Assembly: GCF_000407485.1 (NCBI RefSeq)
Contig: NZ_ASWD01000004.1
Location: 259,429 to 283,428 of the forward strand
Direction: 5' to 3'
Length of the DNA stretch: 24,000 nucleotides
Source of the DNA: Enterococcus pallens ATCC BAA-351
GTDB lineage: Bacteria > Bacillota > Bacilli > Lactobacillales > Enterococcaceae
Shown here one piece after another: positions 3,634 to 16,885 of the stretch (its first letter is position 1; every line of letters starts with the position of its first letter). Both the position numbers and the translations under genes were made by a program. The notes below the pieces were generated by a model. The model ran no database searches, had not been told where the DNA came from, and saw only the letters and a program-made list of their open reading frames with translations.

Positions 3634-4112
3634 TGTAACTATACATGGAATCTGCTGAAAAGTTAATAAGTAAACATAAGATGAGGTAGTTGTTTGGGTA
3701 GTATAGGTCTATTTTGGACAACTGCTCGTTGGATCAATTCGTTTTCTTTATTTACTCTTGCCGCTCCAGCAAGCTGTTGACTAGGTCAGCCTAAAACGAT
3801 AGATACCAAACTAAATCATCAATTCAGACGTTTCAGCAACAAAAAAATTGCGATGCTCCTTTCTAAGAAGTGAGCCCCTATTCGGTCACCTTCTAGCAGC
3901 CGACCATCACAAACATGCTACATACTATAATTCCTCTAACACCATTCCATAGATTAGGCTAGGTGTTTTAGATATGTCCCACTATCATATGTTTATCATC
4001 GGGTTACAGGAATAGACGATTATATCAGTGTCTTGATATAAATTTCTATGTCCTCAAAATGGGAAAACACTAAAGTTACTTGTATAATTTAAAAAATTTT
4101 AATACTGGAACC

Positions 4113-8853: not shown

Positions 8854-10908
8854 TCACACTCCATTGAGCCACTTTTTGAAGAAATCAGATAAAGGTTCTG
8901 CTCTTTCAATTGCGTGGTCTAATTTTTGATAAAAGTTTTCATCATGAGAAAAGGCGTTGATATTCATGACTGTATTGATCAAACGCTCTTTTTCTTTTGA
9001 TGCAATAAAAAATAGTAGCTTGACTGACAAGTCTTTCGGAAAAGTAACTGAATTCTTCACATAGAGAATGTGAATTCCTGATTTCAATACCCCGCTTTTC
9101 TCACTTCCATGTGGAATCGCCATTTGATTGCGAATAACAAAGTGAGCACCATATAAGTTGACTGATTGAGAGATCCCCTCCAAGTAACTCGCTTGGACAA
9201 CCTGCTTTTGTTCTAAACACTCACTACACATAGATAAGCTTGTTTGCCAGTCCTTTACATCCTGCACTATAGTAATATCTTCTTCAGTTAAGCCATCAAA
9301 CAAACTAGATTCCTTGCGTTCTTCTTGAAGGCTTTCGGGAAAAGCTTCCAACAAATCCTTTTTCAAACTGATTGGATTCGAGATAATTGCGTGGCGTTCT
9401 AAAACTTTCAACAATTTGTTTACTGAAATCTTTGATTCCTCCCGTTTGCGAGTAATCCCAAATTCCTTTAGCTTCTGATCATCATTGAAGGTTAAAAAGG
9501 GGGAAATAAACAATATTGGAACTTCTACAGACTTTTTAATCTCAAAAGAAAAATCTAACGTGCTGACAATCAGGTTGATATCTTCTGAAAGATACTCATT
9601 AATTTGATAAATAGAAGAAGTTCCCACAACCTCAACGTTGTAGTTCTTTTCAATTAGATTTTTTAAAAGAACGGATGTGCCGTACCCTGAGTGGCAAACC
9701 AGTAACACACGTAAATTGGGTTGATGTGTCTCTTGAAATCTTCTGATCGCCCCTAAGAAATGAATAACGAACAAAGCAATATCCTCTTTGGAAAAATGCA
9801 CATTCAGCTCTTTTTGATAGATCTCGATATTCTTTTCTAAGAGAGAAAATAAGTTTTGATAATTCCCAATGGCTTGATGATAAATCTCACTATCCATTTC
9901 ATAGGAATTATTTTTGCGATAAATCGTGCTTTTGACATGCTGATACAAGCCTTCCATTAAGATTGGATCCTCTGAAAGCTCCATACCAAGTTCTTTTCCA
10001 ATGCTCGTTACTAATTTAGAAACAAACAGCTTGAAGGACAAAAGATTTTTTTGGTAACTTTGATTGATAGAATCTTCACTGTAGCTAACTAAAATCCCTG
10101 CTAAATGAGCCAGCTCCTTCTCCGAAAAATTTAGGTTACCTTTGATACTCTGCATAAGCTTTTTGATACGTCTATATTCCTCAAGTGATTGAATTTGAGT
10201 TAGGTTTTGCACCTGCTGAATGGAATGACCATAGTAGATGCGATGAATAGCAACGAGAACATTTAGCAGAAGTGTTTCGTAAAAGTTAGTAAATGGATAG
10301 TTATCCGCCAACTCTTTTATCTGTTCCAGCATTTTTCCAAGATCAACATCGATAAAATCTTCAAGGATTCTTCGTTCAATCGGATTAGAAACAAGATGAT
10401 TCTCCTCTTCAGAAAAAAGCACTAAATAATTTTCCCGATAATGATTCAGAATAAAGCGCCTTGTCTCCAGTTCATTCTGGTTGGTAACCTGCCGCTCGTT
10501 CACCTGAAAATGCTCACCTTCTAAAATCGGGATGATTTGTTTGAAATCCGATTTGACCGTATTTCTGGTGACATCCAAAAAATCTGATTCCTTTTGAATA
10601 TTGATTTTTCCCGCAAGTATTAATTTGAAGGTTAAGTACTCTCTTCTTTTGCTCGAATCAGGTTTGTATATTTCTTCTAGCAATTGATTCACAGGGGTAA
10701 AATCCAGCACATTTGAAATAAGCTGTCCATTTAACTCTTTTTGAATTTCTGGCAAGTTCATCATTCTAAGGTAATAATTTAGATTTTCAATTTCATAGCG
10801 TATGGCACTTTCTGAAATAGTTAACTGCTCTTCAATAGCCTTTATTGAAGTTTGAGGATTTTTTTCCAAAAAATAAATCAGTTCTAATAAACGCTGATTC
10901 GCTTTCAC
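8854..10908 (-). CDS. PRD-domain PTS-controlled transcriptional regulator (MtlR/LicR/BglG-family activator: HTH, 2 x PRD, EIIB-like, EIIA-like), 684 aa.
   Basis: N-terminal HTH (MKANQRLLELIYFLEKNPQTSIKAIEEQLTISESAIRYEI), an EIIB-like VLLVCHSGYGTSVLL and a C-terminal EIIA-like MAIPHGS. GTG start with AGGAGG 6 nt upstream. Confidence 0.9.
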   Translation of the reverse strand: MKANQRLLELIYFLEKNPQTSIKAIEEQLTISESAIRYEIENLNYYLRMMNLPEIQKELNGQLISNVLDFTPVNQLLEEIYKPDSSKRREYLTFKLILAGKINIQKESDFLDVTRNTVKSDFKQIIPILEGEHFQVNERQVTNQNELETRRFILNHYRENYLVLFSEEENHLVSNPIERRILEDFIDVDLGKMLEQIKELADNYPFTNFYETLLLNVLVAIHRIYYGHSIQQVQNLTQIQSLEEYRRIKKLMQSIKGNLNFSEKELAHLAGILVSYSEDSINQSYQKNLLSFKLFVSKLVTSIGKELGMELSEDPILMEGLYQHVKSTIYRKNNSYEMDSEIYHQAIGNYQNLFSLLEKNIEIYQKELNVHFSKEDIALFVIHFLGAIRRFQETHQPNLRVLLVCHSGYGTSVLLKNLIEKNYNVEVVGTSSIYQINEYLSEDINLIVSTLDFSFEIKKSVEVPILFISPFLTFNDDQKLKEFGITRKREESKISVNKLLKVLERHAIISNPISLKKDLLEAFPESLQEERKESSLFDGLTEEDITIVQDVKDWQTSLSMCSECLEQKQVVQASYLEGISQSVNLYGAHFVIRNQMAIPHGSEKSGVLKSGIHILYVKNSVTFPKDLSVKLLFFIASKEKERLINTVMNINAFSHDENFYQKLDHAIERAEPLSDFFKKWLNGV

Positions 10909-11067
10909 TTTTTTCCTCCTTTCGGTTATTTATTACACTACTATCATAGTTTAGGCACGGGGATCATACAATGAGCAAAAAATTGAAATACTTCTCGAAA
11001 AATTGACCACTGAAAATCCGATGGAAAAGAATTATTGTATATAGTAAGAAGAAATGGAGGGATTGAA

Positions 11068-11682
11068 ATGATGAGAAACAGCATTATACCATCACTAGCT
11101 TCTGCTAGGCAACTCTACTTAGCAGAGGAAATATTGAAAGCAGAGAATGAGGGATACCCAGAGATCCACCTAGACATTGAAGACGGAAACTTCATCGACA
11201 ATATTACTTTCGGCTTATCCGTTATACATGACACGCGTTATTTAACATCGCTACCCTTCAACGTGCACTTAATGGTGACTCAGCCCAAGAAGTATCTAGA
11301 AGCACTTGTAGACTGTTCACCTTGCAGTGTTTTTATCCATGTTGAGTCTTGCCAAAATCTCGCAGAATTGATTTTTTATTGCCAGCAAAATAAAATCTCC
11401 GTTGGTTTAGCCTTTTTACCAACTACTTCACTGGAAAATTATGCCTACTTAATAAAGAGAGTTTCCATGCTTTTACTGATGACTAGCGAACCGGATGGCC
11501 AAGGACAAACCTTCATTGAGGAAATGATTGAAAAAATCAGTCTAGCTAGGAAAAGATTCCCCGAACAAGAGCTATGGGTTGACGGAGATATTACGATGGG
11601 AAGAGCTAGAGAATTGAAGCAGTTGGGTGTACAAAAATTTGTGATGGGTAGGGAGATTTTTGGGGCTGAGTATAATAAATAG
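11068..11682 (+). CDS. Ribulose-phosphate 3-epimerase family protein (SgcE-like), 204 aa.
   Basis: IHLDIEDGNFIDNITFG (RPE H-x-D-x-x-D-G motif), NVHLMV and WVDGDI are present. Start at the ATG at 11068 with GGAGGG 6 nt upstream. Transcribed divergently from the PTS operon. Confidence 0.85.
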   Translation: MMRNSIIPSLASARQLYLAEEILKAENEGYPEIHLDIEDGNFIDNITFGLSVIHDTRYLTSLPFNVHLMVTQPKKYLEALVDCSPCSVFIHVESCQNLAELIFYCQQNKISVGLAFLPTTSLENYAYLIKRVSMLLLMTSEPDGQGQTFIEEMIEKISLARKRFPEQELWVDGDITMGRARELKQLGVQKFVMGREIFGAEYNK

Positions 11683-11696
11683 TGAGATATGTTTAA

Positions 11697-11744
11697 AACA
11701 CCTAGATCTGTGATCAAAGTATGCTAGGTGTTCTCTTTTTATTG
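11697..11744 (+). terminator. Rho-independent terminator after the epimerase-like gene.
   Basis: A 9-bp stem (aacacctag 11697-11705 with ctaggtgtt 11724-11732) is followed by ctctttttatt. Confidence 0.75.
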
Positions 11745-11856: not shown

Positions 11857-11890
11857 GAAAAAAACGCTCAATCATCATTCGATCAAGCGT
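11857..11890 (-). terminator. Probable rho-independent terminator closing the minus-strand fibre-locus transcription unit.
   Basis: The minus strand reads ACGCTtgATC-gaatgat-GATtgAGCGT followed by TTTTTTT. It begins 9 nt after the stop at 11899. The stem has an internal 2x2 mismatch. Confidence 0.5.
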
Positions 11891-11898
11891 CCCTCTAA

Positions 11899-12657
11899 TT
11901 AATTCGTCGCATATTGAAATTCTTCCAACTGTTGAGACCATTGCAGCCAATACTCATAAAATTCTTCACTAAGTCGGTAGCCCCTGCCCCATAGAGTGGT
12001 GATGGTTTCGCCAGTAATACCATGCAATTCAAACTTACGTTTTAATTTGTTAATTAGGCATGACAATTGACTCATATTTGATGGGGTATCTCCGTCACGC
12101 CAGAGATGATCACATAGTTCTTTGCGAGATAATACACCATTTTTGGGATAAGTATCAATCAGACATTCAAATACTTTTCGTTCTGTCTTTGACAAGCTTT
12201 TCAACAACAGCTTTAACTCGTTTTGCTCTGGACGTTCCACTGGATGAGGAAAGGATAAGATCTGGCTGCCGGAAACTAGCTCTTGCTCCAGCTGACGATT
12301 TAAATCATTCATTTTTTCCCGTAAGCTCTCGTAGCTAGTGTCTTTTGTTAGCCAATCTGCAATTCCCTGTTCGTGCCAATAAGCTTGATCTTCTTCGCTT
12401 GGCTCATTTTCCACAATACGCAGCACCATGAGTGGATAGTGCTTCAATAACGTTAGCAGCTGCTCTACTTCCGAATGACACAAGCTTTCGCTTAAGATGA
12501 CCCATTGAAAATACGAAATAAATGGGCTGACAGCGCCTTGTTGCAGGCGTTGAAGCATATCTGCAGAACACAAAACTTCACAGTTCATTCTTTGCAGCTT
12601 GCTAATAATGGTTTCTTCGGTCAAAATATTCTTTGTCAAAATAAGTACATGTTGCAT
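11899..12657 (-). CDS. Atypical (pseudo-receiver) OmpR/PhoB-family winged-helix transcriptional regulator, 252 aa.
   Basis: The C-terminus LSKTERKVFECLIDTYPKNGVLSRKELCDHLW...LINKLKRKF...TLWGRGYRL is a trans_reg_C wHTH. The N-terminus has receiver-like topology. The acidic pocket is replaced (VLILTKN instead of DD), the phospho-Asp position reads VILSES, and the conserved Lys context is kept (GIADWLTKD). No kinase gene lies in the window. Confidence 0.8.
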   Translation of the reverse strand: MQHVLILTKNILTEETIISKLQRMNCEVLCSADMLQRLQQGAVSPFISYFQWVILSESLCHSEVEQLLTLLKHYPLMVLRIVENEPSEEDQAYWHEQGIADWLTKDTSYESLREKMNDLNRQLEQELVSGSQILSFPHPVERPEQNELKLLLKSLSKTERKVFECLIDTYPKNGVLSRKELCDHLWRDGDTPSNMSQLSCLINKLKRKFELHGITGETITTLWGRGYRLSEEFYEYWLQWSQQLEEFQYATN

Positions 12658-12674: not shown

Positions 12675-13418
12675 TTATGTTTTTGAAGCTTTCTTTTCTT
12701 TAGTCGGCGGTTTCGTCTCCGTTTCTTCAGTATCAATCAACACATTCCATAAAATAATCAATGTCACCACTACACAAATAGCTACCTGTATCCATAATTG
12801 ATCAAAATACGACTCCGCCAGCTTGATACTGAATATTGCTAACAGGAAACAAACGACTAGAATCGCTGCTAACTGAATCTGTTTTAACTCCTGCTGGATG
12901 CGGTAGGTTGTTTCAATTGGCACACGCTTTTGTTGGGCCACCTGACGCACGGAGTTTTTCTCTACCAGCAGCCAGATGATTTCCCGATACAGCTTGCGTG
13001 CCTCCGGTTCTTTGCTAAACAAAGAATACGCACCTTTACTACGATCTCGTTCTTTGCCAGCTTTCATCAAGACCGGATGCAACAAGCGATCATTGCGCAG
13101 TGACCAACGAAAAATCTGCCGCCATTCTTCAATACTCAATTGAGGCAAGTTCAGGACATCCAGAGTCACTTCCAGAGTTTCCAGTTGATCGAGACAAGCC
13201 AGCAGCTGCCGATAATCCCGTGAAACGACCTCCCAGGAAGCAATCACCAAATGATCTCCTGGCTGGGCAAAATTCAGCAGTGCCTGAAACTCACTGGTAG
13301 GAGAGTTCAAGGCTTCTACCTCTTGATGCCCATCTGAAAAGAGTTCATCCACCGGATAATCCTCCAGCATATCCAATTGTTGGGTAATCTGATACCCGCG
13401 TGCATAGCCAAGATTCAT
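12675..13418 (-). CDS. Membrane-tethered serine-recombinase-like protein with a degenerate active site: resolvase-fold N-domain, resolvase-type HTH and two C-terminal TM helices (247 aa). Likely a regulator, not a recombinase.
   Basis: MNLGYARGYQITQQ aligns by eye to the resolvase M..(F/I)GYARVST..Q, with the nucleophilic Ser position not conserved. GDHLVIASWEVVSRDYRQLL resembles resolvase GD.L.V..LDRLGRD. The HTH is SVRQVAQQKRVPIETTYRIQQ. Two TM helices follow (LAAILVVCFLLAIFSIKLA, LWIQVAICVVVTLIILWNVLI). Start at the ATG at 13418 with GAGGAAGG upstream; the track start at 13481 is a TTG. Confidence 0.6.
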   Translation of the reverse strand: MNLGYARGYQITQQLDMLEDYPVDELFSDGHQEVEALNSPTSEFQALLNFAQPGDHLVIASWEVVSRDYRQLLACLDQLETLEVTLDVLNLPQLSIEEWRQIFRWSLRNDRLLHPVLMKAGKERDRSKGAYSLFSKEPEARKLYREIIWLLVEKNSVRQVAQQKRVPIETTYRIQQELKQIQLAAILVVCFLLAIFSIKLAESYFDQLWIQVAICVVVTLIILWNVLIDTEETETKPPTKEKKASKT

Positions 13419-13602
13419 CGTGTCCTTCCTCTTTCTGCTTGAGTTTTTCGTTGAATTCCCCCTCTCGCAGCAGCCTGGCAATCTTTTTTTGCAACTCCTG
13501 TTGACCCTTGATCAGCGAGAACAACAAATAGCTTTGTACCAGTACTACTAGGCCTAATAAAAGTAATAATAGGTAGACCATCGAATATCTCGCCTCTTTC
13601 AT
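13345..13602 (-). CDS. Small single-pass membrane protein (85 aa), hypothetical.
   Basis: MKEARYSMVYLLLLLLGLVVLVQSYLLFSLIKG is followed by a charged helical tail. Its ATG directly abuts the TAG of the 1076-aa gene (TAGATG at 13600-13605), suggesting translational coupling. Its 3' 74 nt overlap the next gene out of frame, so the true end is uncertain. Confidence 0.4.
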   Translation of the reverse strand: MKEARYSMVYLLLLLLGLVVLVQSYLLFSLIKGQQELQKKIARLLREGEFNEKLKQKEEGHDESWLCTRVSDYPTIGYAGGLSGG

Positions 13603-16600
13603 CTATTGGGTTTTTATCTTTCCTAAATCATTTTTTTCGTAATCCCAGCTGTAAGGCTGCGGTGTTTTAGTACTCCCTTTATCATCTGGATTCGGTTTAA
13701 TATACAGGGTTATCCAGAACTCACCATCATTATTTAAGGTATTTTTGGCTATCTGAGGATTCCCTGCCGTATAAGAAGTATTTCCGTTATGGCTTGCTCC
13801 CAGCGGATCGCCTTGTTGCGTTGTACAATAATAACCTACATACTGATAAAACTCTGGTGTGATCAGTGATAATTGCACTTGATCACTTATGTCTGCCAAA
13901 TGATCAGTCGGAATCGATACCTCGGTGAATACAGGATTATCCGTTGATTTTCCAGAATTGGCAGTAAGGTTAGCACGATAGTTTGGATCAATTGCTGGAC
14001 TTCCGCCATTGTCTAAAATATTCTGAATATCGAAATAACTTTTGCTCGGTACAACAATTTCTGCTGAAGAATCCAACACCACCTGTCGAACGTGCCAAAG
14101 TGCGTGACCAGTTAACGTAACATCCAAATAACCCACCGTTGCCGTTCCAGCCGTGTGATTTCCATCGGTTGCTCCATCCCACGTATAGCTAACAGATGGT
14201 CTAACTACTCCAGGCTCCAAAGCATTATGAATGGTTGGCAAATCAACTACCAATTTATTTGCATTCTTCCCAGCGTCTGCCAAAGTTGGTAATTCTGCAG
14301 CTGTTTCATGGGTAGAATCAAAATAATCATAGACTTTCACCTTGCCTCTGGTCAGGACTTCATCACGATCCTGTGTTCCTCGTAATCGGAAGGGGATTGA
14401 ATAATCATCTGCATAGTAAACAACTCCATTAGTATCCTTTGGCGTAACAGCTGGATTTGTTTCACTATTTGGAATCGTGTTTTTTGTCGTTACAAATACC
14501 CACACCCGGTTTTTGACTTCTGCACCAGCTTTTGGTTTGTATACCACATCCACAGGATAAGGCTTCGCAACGGTTGCCTCTCGTAACGCTTTTAGTTGAT
14601 TGGCATCCACTATTACCTTGCCTGATAACTTACTCGAATCTGTTCCGTCCTCATCCAAACCATTTCCGTAATCACCATCGCCGCTGCCATGTTTAGTCAA
14701 ATTCCAAGCCATTGTTTTGGCAAGCTTCTTAAATGCGGCTTCATCCGCTACATCAGCTGCAACAGTATTCAACGGAACATGGAAATTCTTTGCATCTAAC
14801 GCATACTCATCATTTTCATCAATCACAGTCTCATCTGTCACATTATTAATGTAGGTAGATGTAGTTGATGTTTGCTTCTGACTGTCAGAAACAAAATAAG
14901 TCAACAGCTGTGGTCCAGATTTATTTTTATCAAAGCCCAATTTAGCCCAGTCAATCGGATCAGAGGATTTCAGTGTTGTCCCATCTGCTTCATAAACTAA
15001 CGAATTTGGATTTTTATTAATCCTTTCTCTCAGCCAAGAAATATCGTAAAGAAACAGCCCCTTATCAATATCCATCGTATCGTAAACCTGAGTGGCCTTA
15101 GCATCAGTCATAGCTCCGTTTTTCGATCCAGTTAACAGCCAGCGATCTAAGCTTGCCTGTTGATTAACCGCGGGGTCATCTAAATCAACAATGAACGGAT
15201 CCGGAGCTTTAATTAAAGGTGTCCAATCATCAGTTTTACGCAAGATGGAAACAAACGCATTTCCCTTCGTTGGAGAGAGTGCTTGAGAAGACCATTCTTT
15301 ATTCGATCCACTGGCTATCTCACCAGGAAAGTTCCCATAAACCACTTCATCAATAAAATTGGTTTCTCTTGTAGTAAAGGCTCCAGAAAGTACGAATAAG
15401 TCCTCATCCCCAACAAAATTATTTATTTCAATCACTGAGGCCGATTCTGGAAATTCTAATTGGATGGAAGAGGCACTTTTCCAATTAAACTCTGCATCCA
15501 TATAGCCGCTGTATATTCCTGGCTGATTTCCAATATTTTCTAATGCTCCTTCGATGTTACTTACTTGACCGGCATAGAAGTAGCCTGACCCTTGTTTTGA
15601 AAAACGGAACCTTGTCCCCTTAGGAAATACCTTTAAGTTTTTTATCGTCGAGGTATTGACATTTAGCTCAATAATTTCTACTTGTGTCTCGTCTATTGCA
15701 CTATTTCTGTAAACCTGAGCAATTATTTTATTTTTATCAGAAATATCTGGTTGAAATGAGACAGAAGAATTAGGAAAACGAGCAATCTCAGTTCTACTGG
15801 CCTTCTTAGTTGTTGGATTGATGTCCCATCGGCAAATTCTATTTACGACGCCACCCATTTCGGTAGAAGTTGTTTCTGTGCCTAATACAACCGTGTCACT
15901 GATCGGATACATATTACCAATTCCGGCGTGATTGCGGCTATTCGATCCATGAAGCTCCGCTGCAACATCTGGAGAAGCTTCAAATTCTATCCTATTCAAT
16001 AACTGGCCATTAAAATGTTCAACATTAATAAACACACTTTTATCCGTAGAAGTTGGATAAATAACTGGTGTGCTCATATTTGTCCCAGAATTTGAAATCC
16101 AACAGCCCTGAATAGTCTGCCCCTTCATATCAACTGTACTCATATCAACAGCTCGTTTATTATCTAGAGGAGATATAGCTAGATGGGTTCCTTCATCTAC
16201 AAAAGTTGTTGTATTGATATTGTGAGAACTTGTTGTGTATAGAGCCATGAATTCAGTTCCGCTCTTTTGGAAAAATGAGTTGTAGACCACTTGCCTAGTT
16301 CCACTGGATTGATTGATATTATTGGGCGTTTCATGCACCCATTTAGTATCTAGAACCTCTCCGGTACGTGACTGTAAAATAATTCTTGTTTGATTAATAT
16401 TGTTGTACCCAGCTCCATAGGGATAAGTAGTAAAAATCTGCATAGAAATTACATTTCCCTTACTGGTAATATAACTCCTTGATGTATAGTTTCGAATCTG
16501 ACTACTAAACAGCTTGGTTTTTGCTGTTTCTGTCTCTGACAATTGCTTTCCTAAAGAAGGAATGTTCATGTCATATTGACGAAAAAGATCGTAACCGCTC

Positions 16601-16833
16601 TGATATTCTAGTTTTGTTTGACCGTCCACCGGAACCTCAAATTCATTCGTGCCCCCTTGATCCAGTTTAATCGTATTCGTTGGGTGGGCAGAGACTGCTT
16701 GTTTCTTCTGAGACAGACTCAATCCAGTGATAACTCCCATAATTAGCAAGACAGCCAAGCCTACAAATGCCAGTGCTCTTTTCCCTTGCTTGTTTTTCAC
16801 TAAAAGAAAACGAACCCTGTTTCTCTTCTTCAT
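13603..16833 (-). CDS. Large secreted protein of unknown function (1076 aa) with an N-terminal signal peptide and no recognisable anchor.
   Basis: The N-terminus MKKRNRVRFLLVKNKQGKRALAFVGLAVLLIMGVITGLSLSQKKQAVSA|HP has a basic n-region, an h-region and an AxA-like site. The remainder is hydrophilic, rich in Asn/Thr/Ser/Gly/Tyr and looks beta-rich. There is no LPXTG, no convincing WxL motif and no C-terminal TM. AAGGAG SD lies 9 nt upstream. Confidence 0.85.
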   Translation of the reverse strand: MKKRNRVRFLLVKNKQGKRALAFVGLAVLLIMGVITGLSLSQKKQAVSAHPTNTIKLDQGGTNEFEVPVDGQTKLEYQSGYDLFRQYDMNIPSLGKQLSETETAKTKLFSSQIRNYTSRSYITSKGNVISMQIFTTYPYGAGYNNINQTRIILQSRTGEVLDTKWVHETPNNINQSSGTRQVVYNSFFQKSGTEFMALYTTSSHNINTTTFVDEGTHLAISPLDNKRAVDMSTVDMKGQTIQGCWISNSGTNMSTPVIYPTSTDKSVFINVEHFNGQLLNRIEFEASPDVAAELHGSNSRNHAGIGNMYPISDTVVLGTETTSTEMGGVVNRICRWDINPTTKKASRTEIARFPNSSVSFQPDISDKNKIIAQVYRNSAIDETQVEIIELNVNTSTIKNLKVFPKGTRFRFSKQGSGYFYAGQVSNIEGALENIGNQPGIYSGYMDAEFNWKSASSIQLEFPESASVIEINNFVGDEDLFVLSGAFTTRETNFIDEVVYGNFPGEIASGSNKEWSSQALSPTKGNAFVSILRKTDDWTPLIKAPDPFIVDLDDPAVNQQASLDRWLLTGSKNGAMTDAKATQVYDTMDIDKGLFLYDISWLRERINKNPNSLVYEADGTTLKSSDPIDWAKLGFDKNKSGPQLLTYFVSDSQKQTSTTSTYINNVTDETVIDENDEYALDAKNFHVPLNTVAADVADEAAFKKLAKTMAWNLTKHGSGDGDYGNGLDEDGTDSSKLSGKVIVDANQLKALREATVAKPYPVDVVYKPKAGAEVKNRVWVFVTTKNTIPNSETNPAVTPKDTNGVVYYADDYSIPFRLRGTQDRDEVLTRGKVKVYDYFDSTHETAAELPTLADAGKNANKLVVDLPTIHNALEPGVVRPSVSYTWDGATDGNHTAGTATVGYLDVTLTGHALWHVRQVVLDSSAEIVVPSKSYFDIQNILDNGGSPAIDPNYRANLTANSGKSTDNPVFTEVSIPTDHLADISDQVQLSLITPEFYQYVGYYCTTQQGDPLGASHNGNTSYTAGNPQIAKNTLNNDGEFWITLYIKPNPDDKGSTKTPQPYSWDYEKNDLGKIKTQ

Positions 16834-16885
16834 TCTTCTCGACTCCTTTTCTCAAACCTCATCAAATCAATGTTCCACTTGGTAA

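Follow-up and report, generated by a model that had tools for sequence, protein, structure and literature searches.

The DNA analysed here is a stretch of 24,000 nucleotides from Enterococcus pallens ATCC BAA-351 (contig NZ_ASWD01000004.1, positions 259,429 to 283,428; hereafter the window), and our subject is the product of one of its minus-strand open reading frames (ORFs), at 12675-13418, which we name pRes. An identical protein is recorded for E. pallens as a 'recombinase family protein'. An earlier reading made from the letters of the window alone (the sequence-only reading) had described a 247-amino-acid pseudo-recombinase fused to membrane helices and had tied it to the adjacent surface locus; the ORF does translate to this protein, and synteny upholds the tie. 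Our blastp mapping of 42 related loci, which come from no fewer than 15 genomes of Enterococcus and Vagococcus, gave one gene order throughout: a SipW-type signal peptidase fusion (~300-350 amino acids), a BsaA/TasA-like protein (~410-445 amino acids), an LPXTG protein, two more BsaA-like proteins, a large variable protein, a small ORF (called in most of the loci) and pRes, which is always the last conserved gene (Table 1).

The ATG of pRes at 13418 is preceded by GAGGAAGG, a good ribosome-binding site, and corresponds to the N-terminus of all homologues in the family alignment. A longer, TTG-started version of the ORF was set aside because the ATG agrees with those N-termini.

Table 1. Features of the fibre locus in the window
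Feature	Position	Strand	Extent or sequence	Basis or remark
pRes, membrane-anchored pseudo-serine-recombinase	12675-13418	-	247 amino acids	Translation, Sin homology, family alignment, purifying selection
Catalytic-domain remnant, resolvase-like, helix E shortened	13089-13418	-	Residues 1-110	Comparison with Sin and Tn3 resolvases
Helix-turn-helix (HTH) DNA-binding domain, Sin-type	12888-13028	-	Residues 131-177	Alignment to Sin C-terminal domain
Transmembrane (TM) helix 1	12816-12878	-	Residues ~181-201	Hydropathy peak 2.7, AlphaFold2 helix
TM helix 2	12729-12797	-	Residues ~208-230	Hydropathy peak 2.66
Charged tail of pRes, variable	12678-12728	-	C-terminal to TM helix 2	
Small single-pass membrane ORF	13345-13602	-	85 amino acids	Directly upstream of pRes
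Large variable secreted protein	13603-16833	-	1076 amino acids	First gene of pRes sub-operon
Conserved leader	16838-16912	-	Palindrome ACACTCATGAGATGAGTGT plus TTTT at 16886-16906, downstream partner CATTGATTTGATGAG	
Terminator-like hairpin	16922-16944	-	GGGATACAG-N5-CTGTATCCC	After last BsaA-like gene
Core fibre genes	16944-21682	-		NCBIfam TIGR04090, TIGR02228, NF053819; Pfam Gram_pos_anchor; synteny
BsaA/TasA-like proteins	19252-20589, 17604-18485, 16944-17588	-		
LPXTG protein	18452-19210	-		Pfam Gram_pos_anchor
SipW-type signal peptidase fusion	20630-21682	-		
OmpR-type winged-helix regulator, degenerate receiver	11899-12657	-		17 nt downstream of pRes
Strong terminator-like hairpin at operon end	11858-11896	-	17-pair stem plus T run	After OmpR-type gene

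Resolvase homology and the active site

The resolvase signature noticed earlier at the N-terminus of pRes proved to reflect significant similarity to the resolvase fold. The Pfam Resolvase profile (PF00239), a search of which had been suggested as a check, matches residues 9-90 at E 1.4e-5, its 25.6 bits lying slightly over the gathering cut-off of 23.3. When pRes is searched as a single sequence with phmmer, its best PDB match is the Sin resolvase (2r0q, E 2.9e-11), in two aligned stretches that cover the catalytic domain (residues 3-129) and the HTH domain (residues 122-176), and a profile of 23 family members aligns with Sin from end to end over positions 1-177 (E 8.2e-17). The AlphaFold2 model of pRes has a mean predicted local distance difference test score (pLDDT) of 74.7, with values of 85-92 over most of the catalytic-like domain. 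In a Foldseek search of the PDB with this model the top matches were serine recombinases only, Sin first (3e-11) and then gamma-delta, Tn3, Gin and TP901-1, the E values for the Sin, gamma-delta and Tn3 resolvases running from 3e-11 to 1e-6.

Sin, the resolvase of Tn552 and staphylococcal plasmids (2r0q, 3pkz), is thus the best match of pRes in both sequence and structure. The two share the catalytic fold, the GYAR, GD..V and S-R-x-Y motifs (SWEVVSRDY of pRes aligns with SIDRLGRNY of Sin) and an extended four-helix DNA-binding domain, which ends TVYRI in Sin. The resolvase-type HTH of the sequence-only reading is recovered in the second aligned stretch, where YSLFSKEPEARKLY...VPIETTYRIQQ of pRes faces YSPNAKDPQKRVIY...ITRQTVYRIKH of the Sin C-terminal domain. 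On these alignments, pRes is a true homologue of Sin resolvase over the catalytic fold and the HTH.

Unlike Sin, pRes has lost the nucleophilic serine and the arginine equivalent to R68 of Tn3 resolvase. GYARGYQITQ of pRes aligns with GYARVSSLDQ of Sin, which places Tyr9 at the nucleophile position (S9 in Sin, S10 in Tn3). Six residues of Tn3 resolvase, Y6, R8, S10, D36, R68 and R71, are crucial for catalysis (Olorunniji and Stark, PMC2794168). We assigned their equivalents through the Sin alignment and counted conservation in the 23 family members. Y5 (for Y6) and R67 (for R71) are invariant, D29 (for D36) is kept in 22 members, and R7 (for R8) is kept in 19 and so lost in four; the R68 position, V64 in pRes, is V, A or I in all 23, and the S10 position, Y9 in pRes, is occupied by Y in 11 members, N in five, S in three, and F, G, H and K in the rest. 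The earlier claim that the catalytic serine is lost therefore holds, for pRes itself and as variability across the family. The first 27 residues of the translation contain no alternative serine.

Two deletions separate the pRes family from Sin-like resolvases: 4 residues are missing after Q13 and ~12 where helix E begins. The pRes model has a short helix at residues 96-108 followed by a low-confidence stretch at residues 114-129. In Sin, helix E provides most of the dimer interface (PMC2428073). The Vagococcus-type subfamily has an N-terminal motif that is more degenerate throughout (GY.[RKQ]...), with no serine. Further differences from Sin are a C-terminal extension of ~70 residues with two TM helices, the chromosomal position within a fibre operon, and the absence of any res-like site found in the window. 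No res-, hix- or att-like sites were found near pRes, there being no suitable repeats in the window, and an inverted-repeat scan of the whole window gave weak, distant pairs only, none of them convincing around pRes; an invertible segment around the gene was rejected for the window on this ground.

An active recombinase that uses another nucleophile, Tyr9 or a nearby Ser or Thr, would fit the retention in the Enterococcus subfamily of Y5, R7, D29, R67 and D55 (the equivalent of Tn3 D59), as well as the serine found at position 9 in three members. We nevertheless regard it as highly improbable: seven different residues occur at position 9 although purifying selection is otherwise very strong, no other serine stands near the N-terminus, the R68 equivalent is lost in every member, the helix E on which dimerisation and synapsis depend is cut short, no flanking sites were found in the window, and the Vagococcus subfamily lacks most of the motif. 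To judge from these residues, the active site is dismantled and catalysis lost. pRes clearly descends from the active serine recombinases but, by its nucleophile position, its R68 equivalent and the lack of recombination sites found in the window, is not one of them.

Membrane anchor and constraint across the family

The sequence-only reading had also placed two TM helices beyond the resolvase end. Two hydrophobic peaks are found there, centred on residues 192 and 219 and reaching up to 2.7 (Kyte-Doolittle, window 19), with a 7-residue loop (AESYFDQ) between the helices. Every full-length homologue of either subfamily has both helices, with length and sequence conserved, so that they do not stem from a frameshift or assembly error, and several polar residues of TM helix 2 (Q211, C215, T219, N225 and D229) are invariant or nearly so. 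In the AlphaFold2 model one continuous helix spans residues 168-203, so that the recognition helix (ETTYRIQQ) passes into TM helix 1 after ~6 residues; this spacing is conserved in the divergent subfamily. Since the DNA-binding domain would be cytoplasmic and the two helices form a hairpin, we infer that the N- and C-termini of pRes both lie inside the cell.

The DNA-binding domain is the most conserved soluble region of pRes, and with the membrane hairpin it makes up the best conserved parts of the family alignment. Y144, R173 and I174 are conserved even in comparison with true resolvases, and the recognition-helix motif T-x-Y-R-I, common to the pRes family and Sin, is invariant. With a DNA-binding domain (by homology) and at least one TM segment, pRes falls within the operational definition of a transmembrane regulator used in a 2023 survey (PMC10269533). 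Among its ~50,000 entries that survey lists, as proteins for which TM regions are predicted, 15 with a Resolvase domain and 22 with HTH_7; they appear only in a supplementary table, and neither resolvase nor recombinase is mentioned in the main text. Our literature searches on inactive or membrane-bound serine recombinases found no paper that analyses a protein of this kind, in keeping with the earlier remark that no characterised example was known, and none that analyses this Enterococcus fibre locus.

A word-indexed search recovered 106 homologues of the same length and architecture from independent assemblies; those with a named organism are all from Enterococcus, except for one record labelled Erwinia. 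In an exhaustive profile search of 1.84 billion representatives, only about ten clusters at 50% identity cover the TM region, and ordinary resolvases of ~200 amino acids follow. The divergent subfamily, at ~30% identity, comes from Vagococcus sp. BWB3-3 and metagenomes and keeps both the HTH and the membrane hairpin. Copy number varies widely: Candidatus E. ferrettii 665A has at least 15 fibre loci, some of them in tandem ~15 kb apart, Candidatus E. moelleringii 669A has at least 10, and at least five distinct pRes family members carry the E. pallens label, while many other species have a single locus. Enterococci with these loci include E. raffinosus (cluster P0084, on 209 contigs).

To gauge selection, pRes of the window was compared with 11 paralogues of Candidatus E. 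ferrettii (n = 12). Their median amino-acid identity is 0.90, whereas the other genes of the fibre locus all fall below this value (0.51-0.81); nonsynonymous divergence (dN) is 0.055 and synonymous divergence (dS) ~1.4, which is saturated. pRes is the most constrained gene of the locus and is under strong purifying selection; because dS is saturated at so low a dN, the likeness of the paralogues reflects this selection, and recent gene conversion was rejected as its source. Within the expanded ~15-kb loci (L008-L035), surface proteins are 36-70% identical, and pRes, a 104-amino-acid protein and a 382-amino-acid protein are 80-95% identical.

These data leave a negligible chance that pRes is a decaying pseudogene, or an artefact of frameshift or assembly that joined a resolvase fragment to hydrophobic sequence. 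The marginal Pfam score and a frame anomaly in the neighbouring small ORF (see below) would suit such an origin, but it is refuted by the 106 full-length homologues, the family alignment, the dN and dS values and the persistence of the TM helices across subfamilies at 30% identity. We conclude that pRes is very probably a functional, non-catalytic, membrane-anchored derivative of a resolvase.

The fibre operon, its non-coding elements and a probable switch in related loci

The large variable protein of the window has no Pfam match. It has a counterpart in every related locus (721-1890 amino acids) and is the most divergent gene, with a median paralogue identity of 0.51. The small ORF that follows it encodes 66 amino acids in the paralogous loci L009, L011 and L017, where its terminal TGA overlaps the pRes ATG, and ORFs of 59-71 amino acids that end at the same position indicate a like arrangement in other loci. 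The reading frame in the window differs after a run of five G, which yields the longer product and a 74-nt overlap with pRes. One extra G in this run (C5 at 13458-13462 of the plus strand) would restore a paralogue-like end, ...ERGRTR, and the TGA/ATG overlap; strand slippage, a genuine mutation or an error in sequencing may each account for the anomaly. The small ORF also differs between Enterococcus and Vagococcus loci.

The OmpR-type protein encoded downstream of pRes matches Trans_reg_C (E 9.8e-11) and gives no Response_reg match. Its best PDB match, over residues 31-229, is 2hqr, a Helicobacter regulator of the atypical kind that works independently of phosphorylation. On visual inspection the residues of the acidic pocket and the phospho-acceptor seem to have been exchanged (VLILTKN, WVILSES), and the fibre locus contains no histidine kinase. 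Among the related loci this gene is confined to the pallens/raffinosus group, in which a second signal peptidase, the 104-amino-acid protein and a glucosaminidase are added 5' of the core. In single-copy loci the other matched genes (SipW, BsaA-like, LPXTG, large protein and small TM ORF) have homologies that suggest a secreted or membrane-bound product in every case, and pRes is likely the sole product with a cytoplasmic DNA-binding-type domain.

A k-mer screen of the non-coding DNA of 35 loci found no shared DNA motif beyond a leader and an AT-rich box after sipW. The leader, the sole non-coding element conserved throughout the Enterococcus loci, lies upstream of the large variable gene and falls within 16834-16943, a region that the sequence-only reading had named for electrophoretic mobility shift assays. 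It consists of ACACTCATGARRTGAGTGT plus a T run (16886-16906) and, 8-25 nt further on, CATTGATTTGATGAGTATTGA; the window has one copy, as have 31 of the 42 related loci, some of them from species in which pRes is only 50% identical, and the module is absent from the Vagococcus loci. Pairing in the leader is 96-98%, and a short hairpin with the T run alternates with a long hairpin to the downstream block. The short hairpin has 19 one-sided changes, all compatible with G-U pairing, and no double ones, the substitutions being confined to the 5' arm and of the kind C>T or A>G. The long hairpin, which pairs the two blocks, has changes on both sides at 5 pairs (13 cells) and is supported by RNAalifold and by pair counting; its covariation score exceeds those of all 500 shuffles. 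This pattern points to an element that behaves like structured RNA and not like a symmetric operator, with attenuation, processing or the binding of a protein as possible functions of the RNA. The palindrome at 16886-16906, which would be an obvious candidate for an operator by which pRes controls its own expression, was treated as part of an RNA leader in view of the G-U-tolerant one-sided changes and the compensatory long hairpin; it may also have a second role as DNA. A weak match to the Rfam ylbH leader, at 23.7 bits well under the gathering score of 50, was taken as chance.

The hairpin at 16922-16944 varies in stem sequence between loci with its pairing kept. The minus-strand interval between sipW and the major subunit (20590-20629) contains a small hairpin, with co-variation in its stem from one locus to another, and after it a TTTATATAAAA box that is invariant.

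The sequence-only reading had seen no invertible-segment architecture nearby. This stands for the interior of the window and fails for the multi-copy relatives, in which the locus heads carry a tyrosine recombinase between inverted sites. Such a head comprises a 368-amino-acid tyrosine recombinase, a coiled-coil protein and the 382-amino-acid protein; the truncated ORF at 23475-23972 of the window is 95% identical to the C-terminus of the last of these, and the rest of the head would fall beyond coordinate 24000, where the window cuts the preceding gene. Two 23-bp sites, TC.T.GTCT-N5-AGAC.A.GA, flank the recombinase gene in L008 (11805-13427), L011, L014, L019, L021, L029 and L035, and in all seven the 5-nt spacers of the paired sites are exact reverse complements, which differ between loci. 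The right-hand site adjoins a conserved -10-like box upstream of the locus. Inverted recombination sites that bound a ~1.6-kb segment in this way suggest a phase-variation switch next to the locus promoter, though all 10 copies of the segment seen share one orientation; pRes is not the enzyme of this switch. Direct repeats CCGTCA-N4-6-CCGTCA, with a period of ~10 bp, lie upstream of both the tyrosine recombinase gene and the locus promoter (L008:12023 and 13337; L035:15873 and 17224; others) and are candidate sites for the OmpR-type protein.

Single-copy species have pRes without the head module or an adjacent recombinase, and instead have a conserved, fixed sigma-70-type promoter (TTGACA..AAATAACA..TATAGT), which neither the window nor the multi-copy loci contain. 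The switch would therefore not be needed for the central role of pRes. The Vagococcus loci hold, besides the membrane-anchored form, soluble resolvase-like ORFs that lack the catalytic serine (for example MAIYGYVRKGFP and MRIGYTILGHHE), and one of them has an intact, divergently oriented Pin-like serine invertase at its head; these ORFs and the invertase region lie at L005:109-702 (minus strand), 9078-11624 and 16327-16833, and at L006:8543-11514. Beside the intact invertase the only inverted repeats found at the locus head were a 12-nt AT-rich pair.

The heads bring up the alternative that pRes is a non-catalytic accessory of site-specific recombination, which would modulate or lock inversion near the switch much as Sin bound at site II forms a catalytically inactive, architectural complex (PMC2428073). 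The tyrosine recombinase between inverted sites with reverse-complement spacers could be its partner, and so, in Vagococcus, could the intact Pin-like invertase at the head of a locus with several serine-less resolvase paralogues at its tail. We consider such a role improbable, given that single-copy species keep pRes behind a fixed promoter, that the DNA-binding domain of a serine recombinase has no ancestral reason to recognise tyrosine-recombinase sites, that the segment copies stand in a single orientation and that the membrane anchor is left unexplained.

Apart from the fibre genes, a 27-nt inverted repeat (85% complementary; 3959-3985 and 11679-11705) brackets a 7.7-kb phosphotransferase system (PTS)/sugar-utilisation block that adjoins the locus; the pair may be due to chance or mark the ends of an inserted island.

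Possible functions of pRes

We propose that a small serine recombinase of the Sin type lost catalysis and was retained as a membrane-anchored DNA-binding protein. The resolvase-like and HTH domains would lie in the cytoplasm, with the recognition helix running via ~6 residues into the two-helix hairpin, and its gene, at the end of a SipW/BsaA(TasA)-type, LPXTG-linked fibre operon, would share a transcript with those of the large variable protein and the small membrane protein. It would regulate transcription from the membrane in the manner of ToxR, TcpP or BcrR. Since pRes has no sensor domain outside, it would signal the condition of the membrane, or that of the fibre-export process, through intramembrane contacts (with the small partner, SipW or unprocessed subunits), and expression of the fibre locus or loci would be set to match. 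We put the probability that pRes acts as a membrane-bound transcription regulator at about 0.5; its DNA binding, regulatory output, target site and signal are all parts that we infer.

This reading draws first on the HTH, as the best conserved soluble region, and then on several known systems. The Tn3 and gamma-delta resolvases repress their own promoter by binding res, and repression by binding alone shows how a catalysis-free derivative could stay useful, although these resolvases, unlike pRes, are soluble and still active as recombinases. Enterococcus itself has an intramembrane-sensing HTH protein, the one-component regulator BcrR, in which an N-terminal XRE-type HTH is joined to four C-terminal TM helices and which regulates an ABC transporter. 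pRes resembles BcrR in its N-terminal HTH-type region, its C-terminal TM helices and its want of a large extracellular domain, and differs in having two TM helices instead of four and in showing no sequence relationship. HTH regulators are also encoded at the 3' end of adhesin operons (MrpJ, PapX) with recombinase-driven switches (mrpI, fimB/E) at the head; the multi-copy loci would follow the same logic, with a terminal HTH gene made only when the operon is ON and an invertible head element with its recombinase, although those are Gram-negative chaperone-usher systems with soluble regulators and the analogy is one of logic only.

Sin itself forms non-catalytic regulatory complexes (PMC2428073), and transmembrane regulators are often co-encoded with a small membrane partner (ToxS, TcpH, PsaF), several of them controlling pili or fimbriae (PMC10269533). 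The TGA/ATG overlap of the small ORF with pRes in three paralogues is consistent with a pairing of this kind. Like ToxR/ToxS, TcpP/TcpH, PsaE/PsaF and CadC, pRes would have a cytoplasmic N-terminal DNA-binding-type domain tethered to the membrane; it differs from these proteins in having a resolvase HTH instead of a winged helix, a two-helix hairpin with no periplasmic sensor, and a linker of ~6 residues instead of tens.

Several points weigh against a regulatory role. The hairpin would put both termini inside and leaves no room for an external sensor domain, pRes having an outer loop of only 7 residues and a tail that returns to the cytoplasmic side. Its modelled tether is much tighter than that of ToxR or CadC, so that DNA would have to lie against the membrane, and dimeric site recognition is uncertain because helix E, the main dimer interface of Sin, is shortened. 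The k-mer screen of 35 loci identified no DNA target site for pRes, and it is not obvious why a single genome should need fifteen near-identical copies of a regulator that can diffuse.

The tight linker, which disfavours access to DNA, and the lack of an operator in that screen would be accounted for if pRes were a membrane scaffold or assembly factor that does not bind DNA, its folds serving contacts with SipW, the small protein or the export of the large protein. Its gene always comes last, behind that for the large protein and behind the small membrane ORF, and is translationally coupled; this would agree with such a role, as would the conserved polar residues within both TM helices, which suggest intramembrane partners, and the near-identity of pRes among paralogues whose surface proteins diverge, which fits a conserved protein partner. 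A scaffold is nonetheless unlikely, as the T-x-Y-R-I motif is invariant, no soluble part is better conserved than the Sin-type DNA-binding domain, and the two subfamilies have no conserved partner in common: Enterococcus and Vagococcus differ in the small ORF.

A more speculative version of the regulator, which is possible if doubtful, would turn the recombinase fold into a membrane-embedded device for DNA recognition, with the recognition helix rigidly continuous with a TM helix. Each locus would have its own, nearly identical copy, acting in cis or in trans, to tether or read the locus DNA at the membrane and so coordinate which of at least 15 phase-variable fibre loci is expressed, with mechanical gating by export or by the small partner.

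If these proposals are correct, no serine recombinase that became a membrane protein would have been analysed before pRes, which would also found a new class among transmembrane DNA-binding factors. The database name 'recombinase family protein' wrongly suggests mobile DNA. The very short link between recognition helix and TM helix offers a testable model of direct mechanical coupling from membrane events to DNA binding. Through pRes one can also recognise a family of surface-fibre loci, SipW-dependent and LPXTG-linked, that has gone unstudied. In some species these loci have reached 15 or more copies per genome, each apparently with its own inversion switch, and they are likely to form a surface-variation system relevant to colonisation.

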